The notes under the pieces: generated by a model
Database searches by the model: none
Seen by the model: the letters and a program-made list of their open reading frames with translations, nothing else
Told to the model about the DNA's origin: nothing
Part shown: positions 4-39,956 of the stretch, in pieces
Numbering within the stretch: position 1 is the first letter of the stretch
Layout of the letters: every line of letters starts with the position of its first letter
Translations under genes and position numbers: made by a program
Source of the DNA: a virus
Lineage: Duplodnaviria > Heunggongvirae > Uroviricota > Caudoviricetes
Reading direction: 5' to 3' (one strand)
IMG/VR virus record: IMGVR_UViG_2671180439_000007
Coordinates: 1-41,324 of that record
Length of the DNA: 41,324 nt

Positions 4-291
4 GTGTTTAAACGGTTAAATAAGAGAATGATTTTAATAAATAAATACACCCCTCCAACGCAGGAAGATTTAGCCAGACTGAAATCCGCACTAAATTACT
101 CCGGAAACCAAATGGCAGGGCTCGCAGGTGTAGCCAGCGATAGCCAATGGCGGAAATACACTGGCGGAGAGAGCCCCAGGGTAATGTCAAGACACATACT
201 GTTTTATATTGCAGCTCAGCTTGTTCTGTCTGATGAGCAACTTAACAATGTAATAAATAAAATGCGCGATATTGGCGCGGAGATAAAATAA
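4..291 (+). CDS. Small XRE-like HTH protein, possibly 5'-truncated by the window edge
   Basis: ORF begins at a GTG at position 4 with no upstream stop in the window; residues LKSALNYSGNQMAGLAGVASDSQWRKYTGG resemble an XRE helix-turn-helix; its TAA stop overlaps the next ATG (TAATG). Confidence 0.4.
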   Translation: MFKRLNKRMILINKYTPPTQEDLARLKSALNYSGNQMAGLAGVASDSQWRKYTGGESPRVMSRHILFYIAAQLVLSDEQLNNVINKMRDIGAEIK

Positions 292-1358
292 TGCTTGGTG
301 TTATCAGGTTCTTCCTCGCTTCATGTGTAATATACTTCCACCTAGCCGGTCAGTCTCCCGATTTGGGATTGTATGCAGTAAACTGCTTTTACGTAATCAG
401 CGGCTATTTAATTACGTTGATATTACACAGAACATATCACTTTGAATTTTCAAGATTTGCATTAAACAGATTTCTAAGATTATACCCCACGTACTGGTTT
501 TCTTGTTTTGTTGGTTTTATTGTAATTTCGACAAGCCAATCACCAACAATATTTCACCCATCATATGGGGTAAACTTTTCATTTGACGAGGCTCTATCTA
601 ACGTATTAATGATTCCTTGGGCATTTTACGCAGATAATATAATGACTTCGCCATTCCATAGTTTTGGTATTAACCCACTTCACTTTGACGGATATATGTT
701 CCGCATTGTTACTTCAAGTTGGTCAGTTGCTGTTGAAATAGTTTGTTATTTTCTTTTATGGGCTTTTATTGCGAGAAGTTATAAAACAGCATTACTAACA
801 ATGTTTTTAAGCATTGGTTACCACTGGTATTCTATTAAAAACGTAGACTCCCTGGTGGTCATTTACTCGCCATTTATCGCGGCCCTTCTCCCTTTCTCAA
901 TTGGTGCGCTGGGGTACTTTATATCCAACAAACTAAAAGAAGCAAATATCAAAATTTGTTCAAATGGAATAACACAAATACTATCATGCGCTATTTTTAT
1001 TATATTATTTACATCCAACTGGTATTTAAATTACATCAATAAAAACTCATTAGCATCGGTTAACTATTACGTCAACAACATAATAGCTTTGCTTGCCATA
1101 ATAAGCTTGCATTCAACCACGCCGCCTAGAAAAATAGAGAATGTGTGCAAAACTCTTGGTGATTTATCATACCCTATGTTTTTGTGTCAATTCTTTATGG
1201 GATTGGTTGCATGGGAGGCAACTGGCCACACGAATGTGACAAGGGGGCTAACGATATTTATAATCGGCTATGCCCTATCCTTTGCATTTGGATTGATAAC
1301 CATAAAGTTAATTGATCGACCAGTCTCGAAATTAAGAAATAAAATTCGGCAAACATAG
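291..1358 (+). CDS. Acyltransferase family 3 integral membrane protein (O-antigen acetylase-like, candidate lysogenic conversion gene)
   Basis: 355 aa, highly hydrophobic multi-pass protein with N-terminal pattern typical of acyltransferase_3 proteins; AT-rich relative to phage backbone; located at the prophage end after the tail fiber. Confidence 0.65.
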   Translation: MLGVIRFFLASCVIYFHLAGQSPDLGLYAVNCFYVISGYLITLILHRTYHFEFSRFALNRFLRLYPTYWFSCFVGFIVISTSQSPTIFHPSYGVNFSFDEALSNVLMIPWAFYADNIMTSPFHSFGINPLHFDGYMFRIVTSSWSVAVEIVCYFLLWAFIARSYKTALLTMFLSIGYHWYSIKNVDSLVVIYSPFIAALLPFSIGALGYFISNKLKEANIKICSNGITQILSCAIFIILFTSNWYLNYINKNSLASVNYYVNNIIALLAIISLHSTTPPRKIENVCKTLGDLSYPMFLCQFFMGLVAWEATGHTNVTRGLTIFIIGYALSFAFGLITIKLIDRPVSKLRNKIRQT

Positions 1359-22854: not shown

Positions 22855-23327
22855 ACCTCAATCTCTCTGACCGTTCCGCCAGCTTCTTTGAATTTTGCAA
22901 TCAGGTTGTCAGCCTTATGCTCGAACTGTCCATAACCAGCGCCCGGCAGTGAAGCCCAGATATTGCTGCAACGGTCGATTGCCTGACGGATGTCACCGCG
23001 ATCAATCATTAGTAAAGCGCCACGCTCCTTAATCTGCTGCAATGCAACAGCGTCCTGGCTTTTAGGAGAGAAGTCTGTCAGCCCTAACTGCTTGCGGTAA
23101 GCATCCCACCAGCGTGAAAGAAGTTGATAACGGCCTGCGGCTGTTGATTTGAGTTTCGGGTTTAGCGTGACAAGTTTTCGAGGGTGATCGGAGTAATCAG
23201 TGAAGAGTTCGCCACCGACAATAACGTCATAACCGTGGTTACGTGTCGGTTGTCGCCCGTTATCCGTTCCTTCTGACCATGCCACCATATCAAGGAAAGC
23301 TTTACGCTGGGAATTTAGTACCTGCAT
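22851..23327 (-). CDS. Endolysin, lambda R-type lytic transglycosylase
   Basis: 158 aa; near-identical in pattern to lambda R as recalled ([47 protein letters not shown]). Confidence 0.9.
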
Positions 23328-23330
23328 AAA

Positions 23331-23666
23331 TTACTCCTTCGAGCTACCAAACTTGTTACCGATTACTCTCATTGCAGCCCCACGAATAGCATCGACACCG
23401 ATCAGCCCCACCCCACCACCAATGGCAACAGAAAGCGATTTAGGCCATCCGACATACTCAAGCGCGGATGCAAAGGTCAACGTCAGAGCGCCACATAGCA
23501 AAATCTCGAGCGTTTTTCGCTTCCAGCCACCACCACCGCCAAAATAGGCGATGCGCAAACCAGCCATAACAATCGACATAATCACTGCGCCCAGCGGCGT
23601 ATCTCCACGCCACCAGCTCTGAAACAACTCCAGCCAGTCCGGCCAGGTATTTGGGTTATGAGGCAT
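23331..23666 (-). CDS. Holin (class I, lambda S-like)
   Basis: Start set at internal ATG 23666 (MPHNPNTW); three hydrophobic segments, charged C-terminus; immediately upstream of endolysin. Confidence 0.6.
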   Translation of the reverse strand: MPHNPNTWPDWLELFQSWWRGDTPLGAVIMSIVMAGLRIAYFGGGGGWKRKTLEILLCGALTLTFASALEYVGWPKSLSVAIGGGVGLIGVDAIRGAAMRVIGNKFGSSKE

Positions 23667-23710
23667 TTCGTCATCTCTCACCTCGCGATATTTGCGGGTG
23701 CTGTGTTGGA

Positions 23711-23735
23711 AATAAAAAGGCCACGCAACGTGGCC
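23711..23735 (-). terminator. Strong intrinsic terminator between methyltransferase and holin
   Basis: Minus strand GGCCACG-TTG-CGTGGCC perfect 7-bp stem followed by TTTTTATTT. Confidence 0.55.
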
Positions 23736-23742
23736 ACCAGAA

Positions 23743-24795
23743 TTATTTCCCCACCAGTTCACTTACCTCTTTCACCGTCTGATTAAACCGCTCTGACTCA
23801 AGTTCAACACCTAACGCCCGACGCCCCAGCGCCATTGCCGCTTTTATTGTGGAACCGGATCCCATAAAAAAATCAGCAACCAGATCACCGGGTCGACTAC
23901 TGGCATTGATTATTTGCCTGAGCATATCCGCCGGTTTCTCACACGGATGTTTACCCGGGTAGAACTGAACGGGTTTATGCATCCAGACATCGGTATAAGG
24001 CACGGAGACTGATACGGAGAAATAGCGCCGGAGAGATTTAAACTCATCCAGCAATTCAGAATATTTGCGATTCAGTGAATCATAAGATGCCACCAGCTGG
24101 TGGTGTGGTTGTTCCAGTTGTTGTTCCTGAAACTTCTCTGCCGCTATACGGGAAAACAGTGCCTGTAACTTCCGATAGTCAGCCTCATTCGGCAACTGCC
24201 ACTGACTGGCACCAAACCAGTGGGAAACCATATTTTTCTTACCTGTGGCTTCGGCAATTTGTTTTGCCGTTATACCCAGTTCGGCACGAGCATCCCTGAA
24301 ATACGATATCAGCGGTGCCATTATGTGCTGTTTGAGTTCCCTTTCTTTTGCCGCATAGCCGTCACTTTTGCCGCGATATGGCCCCTGGTAATGTTCAGCA
24401 AACAGAACGCGCTCTGTGGCAGGAAAATATGCGCGCAGACTTTCTTTATTACACCCATTCCAACGTCCGGACGGCTTCGCCCAGATGATATGGTTAAGCA
24501 CGTTGAAACGTTCACGCATCATGATCTCAATATCAGATGCCAGGCGATGCCCACAGAACAGGTAAAGGCTTCCGGCAGGTTTCAACACCCGCCAGAACTG
24601 GGCCAGACAGTGGTCCAGCCACTTAAGGTAATCTTCGTCCCCTTTCCACTGATTGTCCCAACCGTTGGGTTTCACCTTGAAGTAAGGCGGATCGGTAACA
24701 ATCAGGTCAATGGAATCATCAGGCAGGGACTGAATAAAATGCAGGCAATCAGCGTTGATTAAATCAATACTGTTTATTTTTACAGTGTTTTTCAT
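23743..24795 (-). CDS. DNA methyltransferase, beta-class amino-MTase (N6-adenine or N4-cytosine)
   Basis: 350 aa; DPPY motif (LIVTDPPYF) precedes C-terminal SAM motif FFMGSGST. Confidence 0.8.
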   Translation of the reverse strand: MKNTVKINSIDLINADCLHFIQSLPDDSIDLIVTDPPYFKVKPNGWDNQWKGDEDYLKWLDHCLAQFWRVLKPAGSLYLFCGHRLASDIEIMMRERFNVLNHIIWAKPSGRWNGCNKESLRAYFPATERVLFAEHYQGPYRGKSDGYAAKERELKQHIMAPLISYFRDARAELGITAKQIAEATGKKNMVSHWFGASQWQLPNEADYRKLQALFSRIAAEKFQEQQLEQPHHQLVASYDSLNRKYSELLDEFKSLRRYFSVSVSVPYTDVWMHKPVQFYPGKHPCEKPADMLRQIINASSRPGDLVADFFMGSGSTIKAAMALGRRALGVELESERFNQTVKEVSELVGK

Positions 24796-24944
24796 GGATC
24801 AGTAAGCGTAACTCTGGTAGGCTCACTCTGCTTTTGCGCTAAAGCAGTGGGCCGTGGTTCGCTTGTGACCAGTAAGCATGAGCGAATGGCTGGCAGGTGC
24901 TACCAACACCCACCAGCCGCCCATTTTCACAAATTAAAAGTCCT

Positions 24945-25139
24945 TCATTGCTGAAGGCGTCTGTAACAGCCGAACTGGTAATCTGCCAGCCCCGCCATAA
25001 CCAACTGGGTCAGTATTAACTGACAGCGTTCGCGTGAAAGATATGTGTTTTGTGCAATCTCCCCGACTGTTGCTGGTTCGATGCTTAATTCATTAAAAAC
25101 AACTTTCGCCGTTTCTGTCATATCTTGCTGTTTTAGCAT
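24945..25139 (-). CDS. Small winged-helix-like DNA-binding protein
   Basis: 64 aa from ATG 25139 with AAGGA SD; segment ATVGEIAQNTYLSRERCQLILTQLVMAGL resembles an HTH; divergent from DUF262 gene. Confidence 0.4.
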   Translation of the reverse strand: MLKQQDMTETAKVVFNELSIEPATVGEIAQNTYLSRERCQLILTQLVMAGLADYQFGCYRRLQQ

Positions 25140-25261
25140 GTCTTTTTTCCTTCTAGTTAACATGACATACCAATAACTCTTGTCTAAAAAGCCAGCAAGA
25201 TAAAAAGTCAGTATTCACGACCACCAGCGTGTTTACCGTACTGCACCAGGTTTACAGGTAC

Positions 25262-25287
25262 AAAAAAACCCGCTCGACGGCGGGTTT
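25262..25287 (-). terminator. Intrinsic terminator (minus-strand orientation) upstream of DUF262 gene
   Basis: Minus strand CCCGC-CGTCGA-GCGGG stem-loop followed by TTTTTTT. Confidence 0.45.
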
Positions 25288-25332
25288 AAGTTGTGTGGCG
25301 AAGTAACCACTCTTAACACAATACAATACTTT

Positions 25333-25361
25333 TTGCGTACGCGTTATAGTTTTCTTACAAT
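25333..25361 (+). promoter_or_regulatory. Putative sigma70 promoter of the DUF262-HEPN operon with embedded GCGTACGC palindrome
   Basis: TTGCGT(-35) 17-nt spacer TACAAT(-10); AGGA SD before ATG 25388. Confidence 0.4.
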
Positions 25362-25387
25362 CAACTTTCAATTAAAGGAACGAAAAC

Positions 25388-26548
25388 ATGACTACACTCA
25401 AAGAACTCAAAGAAGAGCTTGCTCAGATACAAGATGAACACGCTAAGAACAGAAAAAAGGCTGAAATTGCAGCTTTAACCGCTTCCGCTGACAATGAAAT
25501 CAGACTCGCTCAGAGAAACATTGGATACAATGTACGTGAGTGGACCGTTGAAGTCATTATTCAAAAGTATGGTGATAATATTGAAAATGACAAAAACGAG
25601 CTTTTTATTCCAGATTATCAACGTGATTACAAGTGGGATACAAAAACAGCCTCTCGCTTTATAGAAAGTATTCTATTAGACTTTCCAATACCTTACCTTT
25701 ACATTGCTGATGTATTTAATGAAGACCCTGAATTAGATGGTAGGGTAGAAATCATTGATGGTTCACAACGGATACGCTCTATTTATTATTTTTGGAACGA
25801 CCAATTTGAGTTAAAGGATTTGAAAGAGCTTAAAAGTTTAGAAGGTTTCAAATTTTCAGATCTTTTAGCTAGCCGCCAAAGAAGATTTTTAAGAGCTTCA
25901 CTAAGATTTATTGAGTTGAAAGGTGATGTTGAGGAACAACATAGAAGAGATTTATTTGAAAGGATCAACTCAGGTGTTAAAAGATTAGAAGCGATGGAAG
26001 TGAGGCATGGCTCAGATGCTGCTACCTCAATGTTCTATAAAGATGTTGTGACCCCATGCTCAACAAACTCACTTTTTTCCCAACTAGCTCCATTATCAGA
26101 CCGGAAACGGTCGAATGGCGATCATCGTGAGTTAGTTTTGAGATTTTTTGCATATTTAAATGATTTAGAAAACTATAAGGGATTTGTCCGTCCCTTTATT
26201 GATAATTATTTAAATGAACAAGCAGCAGCTGTGACTACTCAACAAGATGTTGATAGTTTTAAACATGATTTTGAAATGATGCTTGCTTTTGTTGCTACCC
26301 ATTTCCCTATTGGCTTTAAAAAGACCGCAACAAGTAAAACCACCCCACGAGCCAGATACGAAGCCATTGCCGTGGGAACTGCACTTGCATTAAAAACTAA
26401 CCCACAACTCCAGAGTCCAGCCGTACCTGTAGGTGAATGGCTATTTGAAGAGGAATTTGAAACACTTGTTACTGCTGATAGTGCAAACAATACCAGCCAG
26501 CTAAAAAACAGAATCTTTTACGTTAAAAATAAGTTGTTAGGGATTTAA
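25388..26548 (+). CDS. DUF262 (ParB/GmrS-like) domain protein
   Basis: 386 aa; N-terminal IPDYQRDYKW and IDGSQRIRSI motifs match DUF262 hallmarks; AT-rich codon usage. Confidence 0.75.
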   Translation: MTTLKELKEELAQIQDEHAKNRKKAEIAALTASADNEIRLAQRNIGYNVREWTVEVIIQKYGDNIENDKNELFIPDYQRDYKWDTKTASRFIESILLDFPIPYLYIADVFNEDPELDGRVEIIDGSQRIRSIYYFWNDQFELKDLKELKSLEGFKFSDLLASRQRRFLRASLRFIELKGDVEEQHRRDLFERINSGVKRLEAMEVRHGSDAATSMFYKDVVTPCSTNSLFSQLAPLSDRKRSNGDHRELVLRFFAYLNDLENYKGFVRPFIDNYLNEQAAAVTTQQDVDSFKHDFEMMLAFVATHFPIGFKKTATSKTTPRARYEAIAVGTALALKTNPQLQSPAVPVGEWLFEEEFETLVTADSANNTSQLKNRIFYVKNKLLGI

Positions 26549-26550
26549 AA

Positions 26551-27240
26551 ATGAGTCTAATTGATTTACGAGATGAATATGAAGAAAGAGCAAGAGACAT
26601 TATGGAACTGCTTTCTCTTGCATCATCTATAGAGATTCATACTCAGCAGTTAGATCCGCAAGCGCATCAAGATGAAATAGAATCTAATATCCTAAGGGTA
26701 AATATTTTAAAATCATCCGTTCATATGATGCTATATAATCAAGTTGAAAATACTGCCAGAGGTTGCATCGAGTCAATTTATGATCATTTACAAGATAATG
26801 ATGTGAATTACGCATCACTCAGGGAGAAGCTTCAAGTAAATATATTACATAGAATTGTTTCAGATAATGAAACAGGGCAATCCCTTTATAAAAAGATAGG
26901 CACTGACATTTCCAAAAGAATAATTTCAGCCTCATTGAATATTCGTAAAGAATTCAATGGTAATGTTTGCAAGCCTGTATTACAAAAAATAACGCAGGCT
27001 TACGGAATAACTATCGCAAACTCACCTGAATGTAGAAATGGTATTGACTTAGACTTGCTTAAGGATATCAGAAACGAACTCGCGCATGGAAGTACTAGCT
27101 TCTCTAAAAAGGGGCAAATTGACCCCTTAGAAGAAGTTAAGTCTAGAGCAGAGAGAGTTGATCTATATCTTCGTTTATTAATAAACTCAACTGAAGATTA
27201 TATTATCTCTAACGGATATTTATCCCCTCAACATGCCTAA
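26551..27240 (+). CDS. HEPN-like nuclease-family protein (Rx4H motif)
   Basis: 229 aa; C-terminal DIRNELAHGS fits HEPN R-x4-H; starts 3 nt after DUF262 stop. Confidence 0.65.
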   Translation: MSLIDLRDEYEERARDIMELLSLASSIEIHTQQLDPQAHQDEIESNILRVNILKSSVHMMLYNQVENTARGCIESIYDHLQDNDVNYASLREKLQVNILHRIVSDNETGQSLYKKIGTDISKRIISASLNIRKEFNGNVCKPVLQKITQAYGITIANSPECRNGIDLDLLKDIRNELAHGSTSFSKKGQIDPLEEVKSRAERVDLYLRLLINSTEDYIISNGYLSPQHA

Positions 27241-28249
27241 CAAATGTTCTCCCTATTACTTGGCCAATTATAGGGGGAACAGCATTACCAATCATCGTTC
27301 CTAACTTTTGGAATGAAAAAGGCGTATTTTTTCCAATAAATTTATAATCCATAGGAAAAGATTGTAAAATAGCAGCTTCACGCAAAGTTATTGCTCTATT
27401 TTGCTCAGGATGTCCGAATCGCCCATTACCATATCCATAACATTGGGTAGTTATTGTAGGACTAGTATCGTCCCAAACCATCCGTCCATAAACACTTTTA
27501 TAGGTAGCACCTGAATGCTTTTTATGGCAATCCGCTCTAATTTCTTCAGGCCAATCATCCCACGTACCACCTGGTAAAGAGTGCAAGATTCGTTTAAGGT
27601 TAATATCCCTTAATTTAGGCGAACGATGCAATGGATCACTTTCGAGTTTCTCCCCTGCACCTATTTTTGGCAACTGACCAATAGCATCCTTTACTGTAAC
27701 TTTACGGCTTACTTTTTTTTGATCAAGGCTGATTGGCCCCAATATGGACCCAATTAGAATTAATCTACGTCTATTTTGAGGCAAGCCATACTCGGAACAT
27801 TTTACAACGTCGTACCACAGATGATACCCAAGAGTCTTTAATACACTAACAAACTCTTCAAAAACCTTATGATTTCTAAGTTGAGGAACATTTTCCATAG
27901 TCACAAGCTCTGGCATGACATCACTTACAATCCTCTGAAACTCAGATAAAAGACGCCACTTTGTATCATCTTTTCTGCTATTTGGATTACGATACTTGGA
28001 AAACGGTTGGCAAGGGGCACAGCCTGCAAGTAATCTAATATTTCCTTCCTTGAACATAGCAGACACATCGCTGGATTGCAGTTCAGTAACTGACTGGTTA
28101 ATGAACTTCGTTAAGGGATTATTGCTCTCAATAGCGAAACGGCAGGACTCATCAATATCAATGCCATGAGAAACTTCAATCCCGGCTTTTTTTAGCCCAA
28201 AAGTTAAGCCCCCTGCGCCACAAAAAATGTCTACTGCTTGAATGTTCAC
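27209..28249 (-). CDS. DNA (cytosine-5)-methyltransferase
   Basis: 346 aa, GTG start with GGAG SD; motifs FCGAGG (I), PCQPFS (IV), ENV (VI), QNRRR (VIII); 3' end overlaps HEPN gene 3' end by 32 nt. Confidence 0.9.
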   Translation of the reverse strand: MNIQAVDIFCGAGGLTFGLKKAGIEVSHGIDIDESCRFAIESNNPLTKFINQSVTELQSSDVSAMFKEGNIRLLAGCAPCQPFSKYRNPNSRKDDTKWRLLSEFQRIVSDVMPELVTMENVPQLRNHKVFEEFVSVLKTLGYHLWYDVVKCSEYGLPQNRRRLILIGSILGPISLDQKKVSRKVTVKDAIGQLPKIGAGEKLESDPLHRSPKLRDINLKRILHSLPGGTWDDWPEEIRADCHKKHSGATYKSVYGRMVWDDTSPTITTQCYGYGNGRFGHPEQNRAITLREAAILQSFPMDYKFIGKNTPFSFQKLGTMIGNAVPPIIGQVIGRTFVRHVEGINIR

Positions 28250-28328
28250 AAGATTCTCCGTTACTTTACCCTGGTATTATATACACATAAAAGTTGGGAA
28301 AGTAGAATGATTTTACATAGCACTTAAC

Positions 28329-28682
28329 TCATTGTATTAAATAAAAAAATGACAAGCATCCATCAATAAACCCCATAGCTGTTTGCATATCTTTTCGAAC
28401 TGTTCCGTCTGAACATTTCCGCTTTTTTGCAATTGTACGGAGCGAAATGCCAACAACAAAGTGAGCAATTATCAGCTCATACTCTGCCGGCTTGTATTTA
28501 CGCAACCTAGCGACACAACCGTCTATTATGATGCCCTCATCATCATCGCACTGAATCCGGGACTTTCTGCCATGAGGTAAAAGCCACTTGAAGCCAGCAG
28601 CTACCGGTTGCCAGTCCACACCACTGTTTTCTGCAGCAGCCCATGCCCCCCAGCGGTCCAAAACTTCATACATATCACGCAT
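28329..28682 (-). CDS. Late antiterminator Q (933W/82-type small Q family)
   Basis: Start set at MRDMYEVLDRWGAWAA; pattern WGAWAA...AAGFK...KSR.QCDDD...CSDG matches recalled 933W-type Q. Confidence 0.65.
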   Translation of the reverse strand: MRDMYEVLDRWGAWAAAENSGVDWQPVAAGFKWLLPHGRKSRIQCDDDEGIIIDGCVARLRKYKPAEYELIIAHFVVGISLRTIAKKRKCSDGTVRKDMQTAMGFIDGCLSFFYLIQ

Positions 28683-28699
28683 CAACTTTCTCCACAAAA

Positions 28700-29695
28700 T
28701 CAGGCCAGCACGCCAATTGCCAGCGCACGATCGATAAAACGAAATATCAGCTCCAGCTGGGAGCCATACATCTCTTCAAATGCCACGGTATCTGCATGCA
28801 GCTCGTCGTGATGCTTTCTGCACAAAGGCAACACAAAGAGGTCATGCGCTTTTGTACCCATTCCACCCTGACCGTGACCTATCAGGTGGTGGGGATCATC
28901 AGCAGGCTTTCCACAACATGCACACGGCTGTGTCTTAACCCAGCGCGTGTACTTTTTATTAACCCAGCGGCGACGTTTTGGGCGTAACATAAAAGACTCC
29001 GGCGACTCCGGATCCACTTCCAGCGCCAGCACTTTTTTCGCTTTATCCTGGATGATGCTGGTGGCAGGAACCGAAGGCACAAGGTCACTTTCCCGGGTGA
29101 CAGACGGCACAACAGGCTTCGGTAATCTCAGTGCCTTACGGGCTGCACTTTCCGGTAAGGCATCCGCCAGGTCATTACGAACCAGCCACCAGCACAGTTC
29201 CGGCATTGTCACAACGTGACTATCATCAAAACCGAGATCCCGACGCACGACAGACAACACCCAGCGGGCACAGTTATCCGTTGCCATTGATTCCAGCCGT
29301 TCCGTGAACTGATCGCGCAGCTGGTTATCGCAGTGCCAGCACAGACGGATTGCGCCCGGCGCGTGTCGCATTGTGGTCATGTTCTCGCTGTGCCAGTCGG
29401 AATGAGGCCACTGACAGCCTTTTTCACGAAGTAACCAGCTTTCAAGACATTCCACGCCACCAGCACGACGGATCACTGCCTCATTGCGGAACACGGCCTG
29501 AACGGCAGGATCATCCGCCAGCGGTTGTGATGCCGCCGGAACGGCACCACTGGCGAAAGATGAATAACGTTCCGGCTCAGGCTCCAGCAGGACACGCCCC
29601 TGCATAAACAGGGGCATCAGCTCTGAACCTGGTCTGAACAATACGATCCCCATACGCGGGGCAATTTCAGGGGTCAGTAGTGCTCTCACGGTCAC
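28700..29695 (-). CDS. DUF968 domain protein
   Basis: 331 aa; C-terminal CACCGKPADDPHHL...CRKHHDELH cysteine/histidine cluster typical of DUF968 lambdoid proteins. Confidence 0.65.
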   Translation of the reverse strand: MTVRALLTPEIAPRMGIVLFRPGSELMPLFMQGRVLLEPEPERYSSFASGAVPAASQPLADDPAVQAVFRNEAVIRRAGGVECLESWLLREKGCQWPHSDWHSENMTTMRHAPGAIRLCWHCDNQLRDQFTERLESMATDNCARWVLSVVRRDLGFDDSHVVTMPELCWWLVRNDLADALPESAARKALRLPKPVVPSVTRESDLVPSVPATSIIQDKAKKVLALEVDPESPESFMLRPKRRRWVNKKYTRWVKTQPCACCGKPADDPHHLIGHGQGGMGTKAHDLFVLPLCRKHHDELHADTVAFEEMYGSQLELIFRFIDRALAIGVLA

Positions 29696-29696
29696 C

Positions 29697-30494
29697 TCAA
29701 TGAACGGTATCGAGCAGCTTTAACAGCTCAGGGAATCTGGATTCGAAGAAATGCGGCTGCGTCTCGCGCGGATTTGCAGGACTGGTGATGTTCTTGCCGA
29801 ACATGCAGCCTTTCGCTGTCAGCGACCAGAATTTTTTGATGTTGTTAATCGCGGTACGGCTGTATCGTTCGCGTTGTTCAACGATCCCCAGCTTCGCCAT
29901 CTGGTGATATGCCTGATTAGCCGTCAGGCGGATACCATACTGCTTCAGCAGTGCACTCAGCGACAGCGTCGGGCGGCTTGAGCCATCAGGCGCGTCAGCA
30001 GGTGCATCAATGGCATAGCGCGGTGCCAGATTCGGTAAGCCAACAGCCTCCTGGAGTTTCTGACAGGCACCAAGCACTGAAGAGTTAGACAGATTTAATT
30101 CCCGGCGCATAAAGTCCAGCAGAATCACACCAGCCTTCATCTTGTCAGCAGCCTGTCCGGATAATTTTTCCGGTGCGCTGGTTACCATGTCGAAAGTACG
30201 GATCACCTTAAGATGGAATGACGGGCTTATCCACATTGCATAGGCATACACCAGTTCTTTGCAGACATACGTCCCCTGGTTATTTCCGCCACGAATAACG
30301 TTAACTGGCTCTATATTGACCGAGTTGCAAATCTGCAACTCGCTTATTAAACGTTCAGTTTGCTCATTGCGGAGCCAGAATGCAGGCTTATGCTTATCCA
30401 GAGAACCGGCAGCCCTGTGAAGATCGTTCAGGCTGTAACGACCATAAGCATCACGACGAACTTCAATACCATCAATGACCATCAGATTATTCAT
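29697..30494 (-). CDS. KilA-N domain protein (putative antirepressor-like)
   Basis: 265 aa; N-terminal IDGIEVRRDAYGRYSLNDLHRAAG pattern of KilA-N. Confidence 0.65.
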   Translation of the reverse strand: MNNLMVIDGIEVRRDAYGRYSLNDLHRAAGSLDKHKPAFWLRNEQTERLISELQICNSVNIEPVNVIRGGNNQGTYVCKELVYAYAMWISPSFHLKVIRTFDMVTSAPEKLSGQAADKMKAGVILLDFMRRELNLSNSSVLGACQKLQEAVGLPNLAPRYAIDAPADAPDGSSRPTLSLSALLKQYGIRLTANQAYHQMAKLGIVEQRERYSRTAINNIKKFWSLTAKGCMFGKNITSPANPRETQPHFFESRFPELLKLLDTVH

Positions 30495-30513
30495 ACTTCG
30501 TTTCTCCTCTTAA

Positions 30514-30903
30514 TCAGGCGGCTGCACCCGCCGTTTTCTCGTACTTACTGATAGTGATCTCGACCTTCCCTTCCGGGATAACCGGTCCCCACTCCACCAG
30601 CATTCTTTTCACCTGACTGTCGTCTTCCCACACACCCGCGTGGGTCAGGGCGTCAAACAGCGCCTTGTTATAGTTGTCCAGATCGCGGATCCGGTTATCC
30701 GGAGGAAACAACACGATCTCCACTGAAGCAGGTGCCGACGTTGGTTTCGGCAGACGACGTAACTGCTCAACTATTGCTGCGCACGCTGCGCTCTGGAATT
30801 TTCGCCCCGCCGCGCTTATCAGGCTCTTACCAGCAAACGCCCCTTTGTTGGGGTGTCGCCAGTACGTGTTCACGCTGGGCGGAAAAGGCAGGATCAGCTT
30901 CAT
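30514..30903 (-). CDS. rusA: Holliday junction resolvase RusA
   Basis: 129 aa; LPFPPSVNTYWRH and RDLDNYNKALFDALT motifs of RusA. Confidence 0.85.
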   Translation of the reverse strand: MKLILPFPPSVNTYWRHPNKGAFAGKSLISAAGRKFQSAACAAIVEQLRRLPKPTSAPASVEIVLFPPDNRIRDLDNYNKALFDALTHAGVWEDDSQVKRMLVEWGPVIPEGKVEITISKYEKTAGAAA

Positions 30904-31226
30904 ACTTTCAGGCCCCTCTCATGTAACCAGTGGGTTGCACGCAGCTTTGCGTTTTCCTCACCGGCAAGCAGTGCGCGGATAATCCCGACCGCCTCGCTGT
31001 CGTCGTCCTTCACCGCGGTATGAAGCGTTATCCCCCGGGCCACGCCACGCTTTATCGTGATGACGCCTTTTTTCTCCAGTGCGCGAAGATGCTCCACCGC
31101 TGCATTCACCGAACGGTATCCCAGCATGGTTGCCACCTCCTGATTGGTTGGCGGGAAGCCACGTTCTTTCTGATAAGAAATCAGCATATCCAGCACCTGC
31201 TGCTGGCATTGAGTTAACGTCGTCAT
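30900..31226 (-). CDS. LexA-N-terminal-like winged-helix DNA-binding protein
   Basis: 108 aa; QQVLDMLISYQKERGFPPTNQEVATMLGYRSVNAAVEHLRALEKKGVI resembles LexA DNA-binding domain; no peptidase domain. Confidence 0.5.
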   Translation of the reverse strand: MTTLTQCQQQVLDMLISYQKERGFPPTNQEVATMLGYRSVNAAVEHLRALEKKGVITIKRGVARGITLHTAVKDDDSEAVGIIRALLAGEENAKLRATHWLHERGLKV

Positions 31227-31909
31227 GCCGCCATCTCCCTGACCAGTTTTTCCGCCTGCTGGCGAACCTGCGCCAGAAAGGCCTCACCACATGCCTCAAG
31301 TTCATCGCGCCCGATGTAGCTGATTGCCGGTCCCTTCCAGGTCTTGTCGAAAACAGCAATAGCACCAGCGAAGAAAGCGCCTGTCGGCACCTGCTTCTCA
31401 TCCTTCGGGATAAACCAGGCAGGCAGTTCAAAACCAATACGCCCGCGAATAAAAGCAATATGATCTGCATCTTCCGGCCACCACACTTCGCTGGTGGCAG
31501 CTTTGATCAGGAAAACATAGCGACCGCCTTTATCACGCATGGCACTGGCATGCTTCATGATGTAACGCATGCCGGTGATGTATTGCCCCTCATGCTGACT
31601 GGCGCGGCTGTATGGGGGATTACCAAAGGCAGCACCTTTAAGCTCCGCAAGACGTTCTGACCAGTCATGTGCCAGCGCGTTGTCTTCCGCCGTGTAATAC
31701 GCGGCACATTTGGCGTTATCACCGTCAGTGAACAGATCCAGAACAAACGGACCAAACAGGGTGTTAATTCCCCAGAAAATGTTATCCGGCGTGCGCCACT
31801 GATCGCCCACTTCCTTCAGTTCATGGGCTGGTTTGTTCCGCAGCTCCACCAGCGCCCGGCAATATTTATTACTCATTAAGCCCCCACGTAATTCCCTGAC
31901 AGATACCAC
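31223..31909 (-). CDS. Phage N6-adenine DNA methyltransferase (Dam-like)
   Basis: 228 aa; WRTPDNIF and FGNPPYS motifs. Confidence 0.8.
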   Translation of the reverse strand: MVSVRELRGGLMSNKYCRALVELRNKPAHELKEVGDQWRTPDNIFWGINTLFGPFVLDLFTDGDNAKCAAYYTAEDNALAHDWSERLAELKGAAFGNPPYSRASQHEGQYITGMRYIMKHASAMRDKGGRYVFLIKAATSEVWWPEDADHIAFIRGRIGFELPAWFIPKDEKQVPTGAFFAGAIAVFDKTWKGPAISYIGRDELEACGEAFLAQVRQQAEKLVREMAA

Positions 31910-32370
31910 TCTTCACCTGATGCAGCCCGCTTGTTGCTTTTCCGTAAACACCGTTCACGACGCGCCAGAAAATTATTTCGTTCTGGCTGGGAGTGGCTTT
32001 CACGGAATGCCGCCATCCACACCGTTGCAGCACGACGGTATAAGCCCCTGGACTCCAGTTCTTCCGCCTGGCGGGTCAGGCACAAAATCACCCGCGGGTC
32101 GTTAGTGCCGACATAGAAATTGCGCACAGGTCTGGTTTCACGAACTGGTTGTGGTTCCGGCTCCTGCGCTCTCTCAGTCAGGCGCGGGAAATGTCTGCGT
32201 GTATCTCCTTCACAACGGTGAGCCACACGCCCACTCTGACGTAACTTGCTTGCTGACTGCAGAACGCGCTGCCGTGAGTAACCTGCAAAAGCATCCGCAA
32301 TGTCTCCGGAAGTACACCCCGGATGGGCTTCAATGAATTTCTGAACGTCATTCAAAAGACTCATGCTCAC
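31876..32370 (-). CDS. Hypothetical early-region protein (possible PerC-like segment)
   Basis: 164 aa; overlaps flanking genes; segment LESRGLYRRAATVWMAA loosely resembles PerC-type regulators. Confidence 0.35.
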   Translation of the reverse strand: MSMSLLNDVQKFIEAHPGCTSGDIADAFAGYSRQRVLQSASKLRQSGRVAHRCEGDTRRHFPRLTERAQEPEPQPVRETRPVRNFYVGTNDPRVILCLTRQAEELESRGLYRRAATVWMAAFRESHSQPERNNFLARRERCLRKSNKRAASGEEWYLSGNYVGA

Positions 32371-33308
32371 CCCCTGAATCCTGCCGGGATCTGGCTGTAG
32401 TCCACGTTGTCGTAACTGGATTTGAAGTACGGGTCTTCGCGTTTTTCGGTGTACGTGCTGACGGACGGCGATAAGCGCAGGGAAAGCTCATCCCATTTTT
32501 CCCGCAGCTTCGACGGGCTGAGCACGTTACGGCACCAGAACGGATCGCGGCTGACGCGGCTGTACATCTCGCAGATTTGTTTGTGAGTACGCCCATCCTG
32601 TACACACATCAGGCGAATTTCGTTTGCCCAGGCTGTCCAGTTCGGTTCTTTGGGACGAACCACCTCGCCGTCACATTCGGCAGCCTGCTCGTACAGGGCG
32701 ATGATTTTTTTCCAGAGCCACTGTGCGCAGGTCAAATCATCCTGCGTCCCCCACTGGCGCTTTTTAGAGCTGAATACAACCGCATCAGGATGGCGAGTTA
32801 AAAAATCCTGTTCAGCCGTCTGCGTGTCCGGTTGCGAAGCGTCCGGACGAGAAGGTTTTTTATCTGACGGATCATGTTTTGATTTTACTGACGGATCCCC
32901 GCCAGATTCTGACGGGTGAAAACCCGCTTTTTTGCCAGATTTCGACGCATCAAATTTTGACGGGTCAGATTTTGATGCGTCAGATTTTGACGGGTCAGAA
33001 TCTGACAGTTGAGAAAATGCCGCTGCCTGAAGCTTCGCAACGTTAAGCTGATAAACATTCGACGCATTGCGGTTACCCTGGCGACGCGCCTTACGCGTTA
33101 ACCAGCCTTCTGCTTCCAGCCGTGCGATAGCCGTTCTGACGGTACTCATCCCCGCGCCAATCTGACGGGCAATGGTTTCAATTGATGGCCAGCACACACC
33201 TTCGTCATTACTGAAATCAGCCAGGCGGGCCATAATTGCCACGCTGGATAACTTCATGCCTGATGCAGCGCAACCATCCCATACATAGCCGGTTAATTTA
33301 GTGCTCAT
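32367..33308 (-). CDS. Replication initiation protein (O-like) with internal iterons
   Basis: 313 aa; N-terminal HTH; repetitive DPSKSDASKSDPSKFDASKS region encoded by DNA iterons. Confidence 0.7.
   Translation of the reverse strand: MSTKLTGYVWDGCAASGMKLSSVAIMARLADFSNDEGVCWPSIETIARQIGAGMSTVRTAIARLEAEGWLTRKARRQGNRNASNVYQLNVAKLQAAAFSQLSDSDPSKSDASKSDPSKFDASKSGKKAGFHPSESGGDPSVKSKHDPSDKKPSRPDASQPDTQTAEQDFLTRHPDAVVFSSKKRQWGTQDDLTCAQWLWKKIIALYEQAAECDGEVVRPKEPNWTAWANEIRLMCVQDGRTHKQICEMYSRVSRDPFWCRNVLSPSKLREKWDELSLRLSPSVSTYTEKREDPYFKSSYDNVDYSQIPAGFRG
32857..33014. repeat. Iteron array (putative origin of replication) inside the O-like gene
   Basis: About eight 16-bp repeats with TGACGG-type cores (ctgacggatc, ctgacgggtg, tcgacgcatc, ttgacgggtc ...). 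Confidence 0.6.
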
Positions 33309-38476: not shown

Positions 38477-38826
38477 TGGAGCCATACAGCCTCACACTCG
38501 ATGAGGCCTGTCATTTTCTCAAGATATCCAGACCGACTGCCATTAACTGGATACGCACAGGGCGTCTTCAGGCAACACGCAAAGATCCCACTAAGAATAA
38601 ATCTCCTTACCTCACAACACGACAAGCCTGCATTGCGGCTCTTCAGTCTCCGCTGCATACTGTCCAGGTGAGCGCGGGTGATGGCATAACAGAGGAAAGA
38701 AAATGTCACTCTTCCGCAGAGGTGAAATATGGTACGCCAGTTTCACATTGCCGAACGGTAAAAGATTTAAACAGTCTCTTGGAACAAAGGACAAAAGGCA
38801 GGCGACAGAACTCCATGACAAGCTAA
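38476..38826 (+). CDS. xis: Excisionase
   Basis: 116 aa; [29 protein letters not shown]; overlaps integrase start as in P22-type modules. Confidence 0.65.
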
Positions 38827-39866
38827 AGGCTGAAGCATGGCGGGTCAGCAAACTTGGTGAAATACCTGATATAACGTTCGAGGAAGCGTGTGTCAGGTGG
38901 CTTGAAGAGAAAGCACATAAAAAATCACTGGACGATGACAAAAGCCGGATCGGATTCTGGCTTCAACATTTCGCAGGAATGCAACTAAGAGACATTACTG
39001 AATCAAAAATTTATTCAGCAATGCAGAAAATGACGAACCGGCGTCATGAGGAAAACTGGAGACTCAGGGCAGAAGCATGCAGAAAAAAAGGGAAACCTGT
39101 TCCAGAATACACGCCAAAACCAGCGTCCGTTGCAACGAAGGCTACGCATCTTTCATTTATAAAGGCCCTACTAAGAGCCGCAGAGCGTGAATGGAAAATG
39201 CTGGATAAGGCACCAATTATTAAAGTGCCTCAACCAAAGAATAAACGGATCCGCTGGCTGGAGCCCCATGAAGCACAAAGGCTGATTGATGAATGTCCGG
39301 AGCCATTAAAGTCTGTTGTTGAATTTGCACTGGCAACAGGCTTAAGACGCTCGAACATCATCAACCTTGAATGGCAACAAATAGACATGCAGCGCCGGGT
39401 GGCATGGATAAACCCGGAAGAGAGTAAATCAAACCGCGCAATTGGCGTTGCGCTGAATGATACTGCATGTCGCGTTTTGAAAAAACAAATCGGGAATCAT
39501 CACCGTTGGGTATTTGTGTACAAGGAAAGCTGTACCAAACCAGACGGAACGAAAGCGCCAACAGTAAGGAAGATGCGGTATGACGCAAACACAGCCTGGA
39601 AAGCGGCGCTGAGACGGGCTGGTATTGATGATTTCAGATTTCACGACTTGAGACACACCTGGGCAAGTTGGCTGGTTCAAGCCGGAGTCCCGTTGTCAGT
39701 GTTACAGGAAATGGGAGGCTGGGAGTCTATCGAAATGGTTCGTCGATATGCTCACCTTGCACCTAATCACCTTACCGAACACGCACGGCAAATAGACTCG
39801 ATCCTGAACCCATCGGTCCCAAATTTGTCCCAGTCAAAAAATAAGGAAGGTACTAATGATGTGTAA
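38703..39866 (+). CDS. int: Tyrosine integrase, P22 Int family
   Basis: 387 aa; N-terminus [46 protein letters not shown] matches recalled P22 Int; C-terminal [10 protein letters not shown]...RYAHL catalytic region; ends 15 bp from tRNA 3' end. Confidence 0.9.
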
Positions 39867-39880
39867 CTTATTGATTTTAA

Positions 39881-39956
39881 TGGTGCCGATAATAGGAGTC
39901 GAACCTACGACCTTCGCATTACGAATGCGCTGCTCTACCAACTGAGCTATATCGGC
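39881..39956 (-). tRNA. thrW: tRNA-Thr (CGU anticodon)
   Basis: Reverse complement reads GCCGATATAGCTCAGTTGGTAGAGCAGCGCATTCGTAATGCGAAGGTCGTAGGTTCGACTCCTATTATCGGCACCA; cloverleaf with CGT anticodon and CCA end. Confidence 0.9.

Follow-up and report, generated by a model that had tools for sequence, protein, structure and literature searches.

The window analysed here, that is, the whole stretch of 41,324 nucleotides at positions 1 to 41,324 of IMG/VR virus record IMGVR_UViG_2671180439_000007, is an Escherichia coli prophage, a temperate phage of the SfV-like type whose insertion site is tRNA-Thr/proA. Between 23.3 and 32.4 kb, where transcription runs leftward (on the minus strand) except for two plus-strand genes, it encodes three DNA methyltransferases (MTases): a Dam-like N6-adenine MTase, a 5-methylcytosine (m5C) MTase (Dcm) that follows the antiterminator gene Q, and a beta-class MTase that resembles M.EcoGII and precedes the holin gene (Table 1). 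The plus-strand genes, which encode a DUF262 protein and a MAE_28990-family HEPN protein, converge on the m5C gene, and we refer to these three genes as the cassette. Gene assignments were made by Pfam and NCBIfam profile matches, and defence models were taken from PADLOC (PADLOC-DB v2). The initial annotation had recognised three MTases of different classes and interpreted them as a triple self-modification under strong selection to evade host restriction. As to what lies where, it was right: the three open reading frames (ORFs), all on the minus strand, are intact and exceed the curated cut-offs of their profiles by a wide margin, 79 nt separate Q from the start of the m5C gene, the beta-class gene adjoins a terminator and the holin gene, and the DUF262 gene lies between. 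The catalytic motifs, whose possible disruption it had raised, are intact in all three enzymes. As framed there, three MTases are an ordinary finding, multiple MTases being documented in SfV-like and Stx-type lambdoid phages; the useful result is that the third gene, the m5C MTase, can be re-assigned to a compact three-gene module found in many phyla.

Table 1. Genes and signals of the MTase-bearing section of the window, in the order of leftward transcription.
Feature	Position	Strand	Match or remark
PerC-like gene	31876-32370	-	
Dam-like phage N6-adenine MTase, 217 aa	31223-31876	-	PF05869, TIGR01712
LexA-DNA-binding-like protein	30900-31226	-	
RusA	30514-30903	-	
KilA-N	29697-30494	-	
DUF968/HNH	28700-29695	-	
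Antiterminator Q, 122 aa	28329-28697	-	PF06530, E 3e-45
Q-Dcm intergenic region, candidate promoter	28250-28328	-	TATAAT 28281-28276, GGAG 28259-28256
m5C DNA MTase (Dcm), 346 aa	27209-28249	-	PF00145, E 3e-54; TIGR00675
MAE_28990-family HEPN protein, 229 aa	26551-27240	+	PF18737, E 3e-17; PF18735, E 2e-8
DUF262 (ParB/GmrSD_N-like) protein, 386 aa	25388-26548	+	PF03235, E 6e-26
Intrinsic terminator, tR'-like	25287-25266	-	8-bp GC-rich stem and T-run
Small winged helix-turn-helix (wHTH; TrmB-like) protein, 64 aa	24945-25139	-	equivalent to SfV orf47
Beta-class N6_N4 MTase, M.EcoGII family, 350 aa	23743-24795	-	PF01555, E 2e-42
Intrinsic terminator, boundary of beta-class MTase and lysis genes	23735-23719	-	7-bp stem with 6 GC pairs, T-run; putative terminator in SfV annotation
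Holin of the lambda family, opening the lysis cassette	23331-23666	-	PF05106, TIGR01594; 111 aa in sibling loci

The m5C MTase has the motifs of its class in order, with FCGAGG at residue 9, PCQPFS at 79, ENV at 119, QNRRR at 158 and GNAVPP at 321, and the 3' end of its gene overlaps that of the convergent HEPN gene by 32 nt. Its nearest solved or profiled relatives (DNMT1, M.HaeIII, DrmMII and DruM) share only the catalytic core with it, and target specificity is not inferable from them. The HEPN protein carries the Rx4H motif as RNELAH at residue 174 and is probably an RNase-type effector; among the PADLOC models, searched at E <= 10, its single match is one of 13 bits to a DRT HEPN model. 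In PHROGs both the HEPN and the DUF262 protein are listed with unknown function.

The DUF262 protein is matched in PADLOC by NsnA (8e-45) and by PD-T4-2_A (6e-27, over 270 residues), and there is a weak REase_II match (7e-4) on the DUF262 domain. No DUF1524, His-Me or other nuclease domain is found in it, either by Pfam, which returns GmrSD_N only, or in the AlphaFold2 (AF2) model. In this model (pLDDT 85.6) the C-terminal half is all helical, and the best Foldseek matches, of modest significance, are the Noc/ParB CTPases, BrxU and SspE. By analogy with these proteins, the DUF262 protein is predicted to be a nucleoside triphosphate (NTP)-dependent sensor of DNA or of its modification. The gammaproteobacterial DUF262 proteins also begin with a long N-terminal helix (residues 4-44 of the model; residues 1-45, window 25388-25520) that is missing in other phyla, and tblastn matches to the DUF262 proteins of other phyla start at about residue 33.

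The list of homologues of the DUF262 protein, 3,236 in number, and that of the m5C MTase share contigs at parallel identities, in Enterobacterales, Pseudomonas, Vibrionaceae and others. A DUF262-HEPN pair convergent with Dcm is found in Pseudomonas beside pheT/ihfA, in Photobacterium among housekeeping genes and in a Providencia integrase island, and a Type I restriction-modification (R-M) locus holds the trio, arranged likewise, in the interval from hsdS to hsdR (L007, 2324-12508). In the cyanobacterium Phormidium all three cassette genes are co-directional. Searching from the MTase side, homologues in Halomonadaceae and Proteus are likewise linked, the Proteus copy being inserted where a P2-like prophage has its variable slot, with a replication gene on one side and a portal gene on the other (L105, 4001-6928).

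A profile-guided scan in which each species was represented by a single genome gave 80 DUF262 loci, which were then searched with hidden Markov models built from the cassette proteins; the loci span Gammaproteobacteria, Betaproteobacteria, Campylobacterota, Bacteroidota, Cyanobacteria, Planctomycetota, Verrucomicrobiota, Acidobacteriota and others. The HEPN gene directly follows DUF262 in 79/80 loci, and in the exception the contig ends 17 nt past DUF262. An m5C MTase gene is adjacent in 69 of the 80, where it either follows the pair in convergent orientation, as it does in the window, or precedes it in the same direction, and seven more are cut by a contig end on the relevant side. The remaining four loci are complete and without an m5C gene, and each of them has an upstream ORF of ~1,400 residues; both of the two that were scanned match MTase domains of the Eco57I/MmeI type (PglX/BREX-like), the unscanned two being of similar size. 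It thus appears that every interpretable locus (73/73) pairs DUF262-HEPN with a DNA MTase. Loci without the m5C gene (L058 and L073, 500-10850) also carry another ORF of ~1,340 residues. A PglX-like MTase and such an ORF beside DUF262-HEPN suggest BREX-like loci.

The DUF262-HEPN pair could also be modification-dependent, in the manner of Type IV systems or of PD-T4-2, and act against hypermodified phage DNA. The MTase would then be linked to it for some other purpose, such as acting as decoy or competitor, regulating expression of the cassette or supplying another partner's mark. The two best PADLOC matches of the DUF262 protein point in this direction, as does the fact that PD-T4-2 protects against T4 without an MTase; furthermore, the DUF262 proteins of GmrSD, BrxU and TgvAB sense modified cytosines (PMC10952713; PMC11411939), and that of Dazbog is thought to recognise methylated DNA (PMC10952713). 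However, a system of this kind would have no need for an MTase, whereas one is apparently present at all interpretable loci, the two scanned m5C-less loci with their PglX-like enzymes included. Moreover, the HEPN protein is unmatched by PD-T4-2_B, PD-T4-2 is much smaller (1,540 bp for both genes) and the DUF1524 nuclease of the GmrSD type is absent. We consider modification dependence improbable.

The tightness of the linkage could also be that of a mainly selfish addiction module, in which the HEPN protein is a toxin that kills cells losing the MTase (post-segregational killing) and so keeps the prophage or island stable, defence being secondary or absent. HEPN domains are common toxins (PMC3710099), convergent overlapping genes are typical of tightly balanced pairs of toxin and protector, and the three linked genes have moved across islands, prophages and R-M loci. 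Against this, the module is found repeatedly in defence contexts, namely the Type I R-M locus, the BREX-like loci and the P2 hotspot, and addiction and defence are in any case not mutually exclusive, as Type II R-M systems illustrate. As a main explanation addiction seems very unlikely to us.

That the m5C MTase belongs with DUF262-HEPN as a functional partner is consistent with the way in which the three proteins have diverged. For the 62 loci with the same MTase subfamily, a Mantel test on pairwise protein distances gave correlations of r = 0.89 for DUF262-HEPN, 0.69 for DUF262-Dcm and 0.72 for HEPN-Dcm (p = 0.001 for each). Across these loci the R and H of the HEPN motif are invariant (62/62), as are PDYQR and DG[ST]QR of the DUF262 protein, and the catalytic motifs of the MTase, PCQ and ENV among them, are conserved. 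The initial annotation had raised the question of whether the DUF262 protein, as a member of a family that often targets modified DNA, is compatible with the methylation carried out beside it. For the m5C MTase the relation is the reverse: DUF262-HEPN and this enzyme are linked, co-evolving partners.

How the cassette came to lie in this prophage can be read from a comparison with Shigella phage SfV, which, along with mEp460-type phages, is the best phage match to 23.0-32.4 kb of the window. In pairwise BLAST the two are ~95% identical across 22876-25286 and 28704-32442. The segment between these blocks (25287-28703; 3,417 bp with the DUF262, HEPN, m5C MTase and 122-aa Q genes) stands in place of 876 bp in SfV, where another Q, of 250 aa, is encoded. 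Its left breakpoint, at 25287, coincides with the terminator annotated downstream of Q in SfV, homology to SfV resuming at 25286, and its right breakpoint is at 28703. The GC content of the imported segment is 36-38%, against 50-56% around it. O111:H8 has a second variant of the cassette (86.6% identity), in a lambdoid prophage that is unrelated and has no beta-class MTase; this variant follows a Q related to that of the window, and the Q-Dcm junction is the same. Between these variants, 86.6% identical overall, the Q-Dcm spacer and the 3' end of Q are ~96% conserved (window 28250-28328; L103, 9953-10017), and the TATAAT hexamer upstream of Dcm is invariant. Judging from these alignments, the cassette and its Q seem to be transferred together.

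SfV carries dam and orf48, a beta-class MTase gene, without the cassette, so that two MTases are the normal state of the SfV-like backbone, and the M.EcoGII-like and Dam-like pair is ordinary for this group of phages. Conversely, in E. coli AVS0247 both the cassette and the beta-class MTase are present, and exactly 31227-31872, the Dam gene, is missing. Among ten distinct contigs with an identical HEPN protein, all ten have the order Q-Dcm-HEPN-DUF262-orf47-betaMTase-holin, and Dam is present in two. The cassette is found in 107 of 5,426 complete E. coli genomes (~2%), Dam being absent from every one that has the cassette arrangement; none of the 5,426 covers more than 88% of the Dcm-to-Dam segment, and the best of them lacks Dam. 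The triple set was found only in draft assemblies (L095, L098). Among 50,697 deposited phage genomes the cassette is found in none.

If the three MTases were all anti-restriction genes of the phage, kept together by selection, with DUF262-HEPN as unrelated neighbours, one could point to the intactness of all three genes, to the recurrence of the arrangement in at least two other assemblies (L095, L098) and to the place of the m5C gene, directly after Q and behind a conserved TATAAT, where it may be transcribed with the late genes. Orphan MTases of phages are, in addition, a known anti-restriction strategy (PMC5778455; PMC12707154). Set against this are the independent assortment of Dam, the beta-class MTase and the cassette, with the Dcm-to-Dam combination missing from the complete E. 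coli genomes, the lack of the cassette among phage records, and the tie between the m5C gene and DUF262-HEPN at non-phage chromosomal sites across phyla. We regard this explanation as unlikely. The strong selection for triple self-modification proposed in the initial annotation is therefore not supported, since the three genes assort independently. Self-modification against restriction is reasonable, and backed by the literature, for the M.EcoGII-like and Dam-like enzymes, though not for a co-selected triple, and the interpretation as a whole is partly supported. On these sequence comparisons, the triple was brought together by chance recombination from three modules that assort independently, and is not a co-selected set.

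We thus favour, at a probability of roughly 70%, the reading that the three MTases are three separately exchanged modules and that the m5C MTase is the modification part of an R-M-like DUF262-HEPN-MTase cassette. On this reading, the low-GC three-gene cassette came together with its own Q and occupies the moron slot that separates Q from the lysis genes. What can be seen directly for the cassette is linkage, co-evolution and intact motifs, and from these we infer a mechanism along the following lines. The m5C MTase would mark the DNA of the lysogen, prophage included, at its target motif; the DUF262 protein would read the methylation status through NTP binding or hydrolysis, as its GmrSD, BrxU and SspE relatives do, and would license the HEPN effector on DNA without the mark. 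The outcome would be an R-M-like defence that shields the lysogen against superinfecting phages. Progeny phage would, incidentally, leave the cell pre-methylated, so that the self-modification proposed earlier may hold secondarily. The M.EcoGII-like enzyme, for its part, would be silent in the lysogen and at induction would coat progeny DNA with non-specific N6-methyladenine (m6A), giving broad protection against restriction in the next host.

The TATAAT element may be pR' or a constitutive promoter, in which case transcripts would cover the MTase gene and then run antisense through the HEPN and DUF262 genes as far as the terminator at 25287-25266. Speculatively, such convergent transcription may set the ratio of MTase to effector in favour of the MTase, and may boost the MTase above all at induction. 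In its fullest form, the proposal is that the cassette is a widespread methylation-gated immunity, in which a ParB-like NTPase reads m5C and controls a HEPN RNase in trans, acting through RNA cleavage or abortive infection and not through DNA cutting, and which in the lambdoid Q-to-lysis slot has its MTase boosted by late transcription running antisense to the effectors. We offer this only tentatively, and doubt that it holds in all its parts.

Several observations weigh against these interpretations. Part of the Mantel correlation could stem from the phylogeny that the organisms have in common. A P2-like prophage of Pasteurella (L106, 4001-7016) has an m5C MTase of the same subfamily, at 55% identity, whose convergent neighbour is a 658-aa HATPase_c_3/SduA_C-like protein, which suggests that the cassette-type m5C MTase is not exclusive to DUF262-HEPN and can serve other effector modules. 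PD-T4-2, the nearest tested relative, works without an MTase and is non-toxic in K-12 (PMC9519451), a behaviour that fits a modification-dependent rather than a modification-protected logic. There is no recognised DNase or restriction endonuclease fold in the cassette, so that classical restriction is at most putative, functional coupling being deduced from gene linkage alone, and the Foldseek E-values behind the sensor prediction are weak (3e-3 at best). The ideas on the promoter and on convergent transcription draw on a hexamer and its conservation alone, and a generic promoter scan returned 14 sites against 13.0 +/- 4.0 in shuffled sequence, which is no excess. Identity of 81% to M.EcoGII is no proof of non-specificity, and the activities of all three enzymes are predicted from sequence alone.

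Of the two MTases that belong to the backbone, the beta-class enzyme is the equivalent of SfV orf48 and aligns with M.EcoGII over the full length, with 282/349 residues identical (81%), 90% positives and 2 gaps; the M.EcoGII reference was machine-read from the supplement of PMC11551740, and a few of the mismatches may be optical character recognition errors. The motif order is that of the beta class, with VTDPPYF at residues 32-38 (DPPY at 34-37) and DFFMGSGST near residue 310, and the PF01555 match covers residues 29-341. A sequence search of solved structures returned distant beta-class MTases only, M.EcoGII not being among them. M.EcoGII is a non-specific adenine MTase from a very large family of E. 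coli prophage enzymes; it is unexpressed in the lysogen, deleterious when its expression is forced, and supposedly activated upon excision of the prophage (Murray et al., PMC5778455), and a review of 2025 repeats this account of a non-specific, lysogen-silent enzyme that is presumed to be activated by induction (PMC12707154). The window enzyme shares with M.EcoGII and M.EcoGI of E. coli O104:H4 prophages its size (350 versus 349 aa), the DPPY...TRD...FxGxG order, where TRD is the target recognition domain, and the location in a prophage. On this likeness it is most likely non-specific too, although 19% of the residues differ from M.EcoGII, several of them in the central TRD region, and the trait is thereby carried over from M.EcoGII to the window allele by resemblance.

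The beta-class gene lies between the two terminators of Table 1, downstream of Q and directly upstream of the holin gene, a position that fits late expression dependent on Q antitermination, which is its most likely pattern. Directly upstream of it, both in SfV (orf47-orf48) and in 10/10 sibling contexts, is the gene for the 64-aa wHTH protein, which has weak Pfam wHTH matches, a match to phrog_331 (unknown function) at E 6e-35, and the name TrmB family regulator in the sources. This protein may serve to keep the MTase, toxic and non-specific as it is, under control.

The Dam-like protein scores 155.7 bits with PF05869 (E 1e-45; cut-off 28) and 255.3 bits with TIGR01712, phage_N6A_met (cut-off 97), and contains the catalytic NPPY motif (as GNPPYS). 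In its 217-aa form it is 99% identical to SfV Dam (AAL89443.1). The initial annotation had placed the gene at 31223-31909; the gene stands, but its start is most likely the ATG at 31876 instead of the in-frame GTG upstream at 31909, because the 217-aa form is the one that is 99% identical to SfV Dam and the one called in sibling prophages, and the PADLOC model aligns from residue 12. Sequence search of solved structures gave no matches for this protein. For M.EcoVT2Dam of VT2-Sa, the reported target is GATC (PMC6602927). The Dam-like gene of the window behaves as a precise indel (31227-31872) flanked by the LexA-like and PerC-like genes, the position that dam also has in SfV; it is present in SfV, L095 and L098 and absent from E. 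coli AVS0247 and from 8/10 sibling contexts. With orf32 of VT2-Sakai, which we take to be M.EcoVT2Dam, the Dam-like protein shares its Pfam family and 31% identity. The SfV genome paper reportedly found a functional Dam methylase, and the GenBank annotation reads 'DNA adenine methylase'. The enzyme most likely methylates GATC, an assignment that, as identity to M.EcoVT2Dam is only 31%, comes mainly from the SfV annotation and from that report.

Beyond the section shown in Table 1, lysozyme and spanin genes follow the holin gene in the lysis cassette, and the right end of the window consists of a tyrosine integrase gene (38703-39866), tRNA-Thr(cgt) (39881-39956) and then proA. This is the thrW/proA attachment region, the one used by SfV-type phages. 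At the far left end of the prophage, past the tail-fibre genes, lies a gene (291-1358, plus strand; together with 4-291, plus strand) of 38% GC whose product, of 355 aa, is a membrane acyltransferase (PF01757 Acyl_transf_3, E 2e-21). It is probably a serotype-conversion moron of the O-antigen acetylase type; no gtr genes were seen in the window, despite its SfV-like backbone.

All three enzymes come from known families, and the M.EcoGII-like and Dam-like ones are near-copies of described phage genes. For the cassette there is a moderate chance that the mechanism, an RNase effector gated by DNA methylation, is new. If the interpretation is correct, it joins two themes that are usually studied apart, the DUF262/ParB-like NTPase as an epigenetic sensor and the HEPN RNase as an effector, and offers a tractable example in an E. 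coli prophage. Lysogens would then carry an extra m5C motif, with consequences for how their DNA is restricted by McrBC-type enzymes and for how methylomes are to be interpreted.

The trio of ParB-like protein, MAE_28990 HEPN and DNA methylase has been listed once, computationally, as a single line of Table 1 in Anantharaman et al. 2013 (PMC3710099), and we found no experimental work on it in the literature searched. The window cassette falls into this operon class, with PF03235, PF18737 and PF00145 all within 25388-28249 and RNELAH present, and differs from that listing in showing the trio as a lambdoid prophage moron that travels with Q. PADLOC v2 does not model the trio as a system and has no model for this HEPN, the DUF262 protein being assigned to NsnA or PD-T4-2_A. 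Menshen (NsnABC) shares the DUF262 domain with helical C-terminal architecture, NsnA being the best PADLOC match; in place of an NsnB ATPase and NsnC, which are lacking, the partners in the window are HEPN and an MTase, and we do not class the cassette as Menshen. PD-T4-2, a DUF262 and HEPN system of ECOR65 validated against T4 (Vassallo et al. 2022, PMC9519451), shares the two-gene core and the A-model match over 270 residues. It is without an MTase and ~300 bp shorter, and the window DUF262 protein scores better to NsnA; as the A model is matched without being the best, the B model is unmatched at E <= 10 and an MTase is present, we do not assign the cassette to PD-T4-2 either.

The cassette resembles Type II R-M systems with an m5C MTase in the tight linkage and convergence of the MTase with its putative effectors, in horizontal mobility and in low GC content, but instead of a recognisable endonuclease fold it has a predicted effector made up of an RNase-type HEPN and an NTPase. 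Characterised DUF262 domains are NTP-binding or NTP-hydrolysing sensors of DNA modification that control a nuclease (PMC10952713; PMC11411939), and SspE is described as a DUF262 effector coupled to cognate self-modification (PMC13251355; PMC12707154). A GmrSD-type Type IV enzyme can be set aside for the window protein, in which DUF1524 is absent. What the cassette would share with SspABCD-SspE and with GmrSD/BrxU is the use of a ParB-like DUF262 NTPase as sensor of an epigenetic mark; in place of their DUF1524 His-Me nuclease it has a separate HEPN effector, and its mark would be m5C, and not phosphorothioate or hydroxymethylcytosine.

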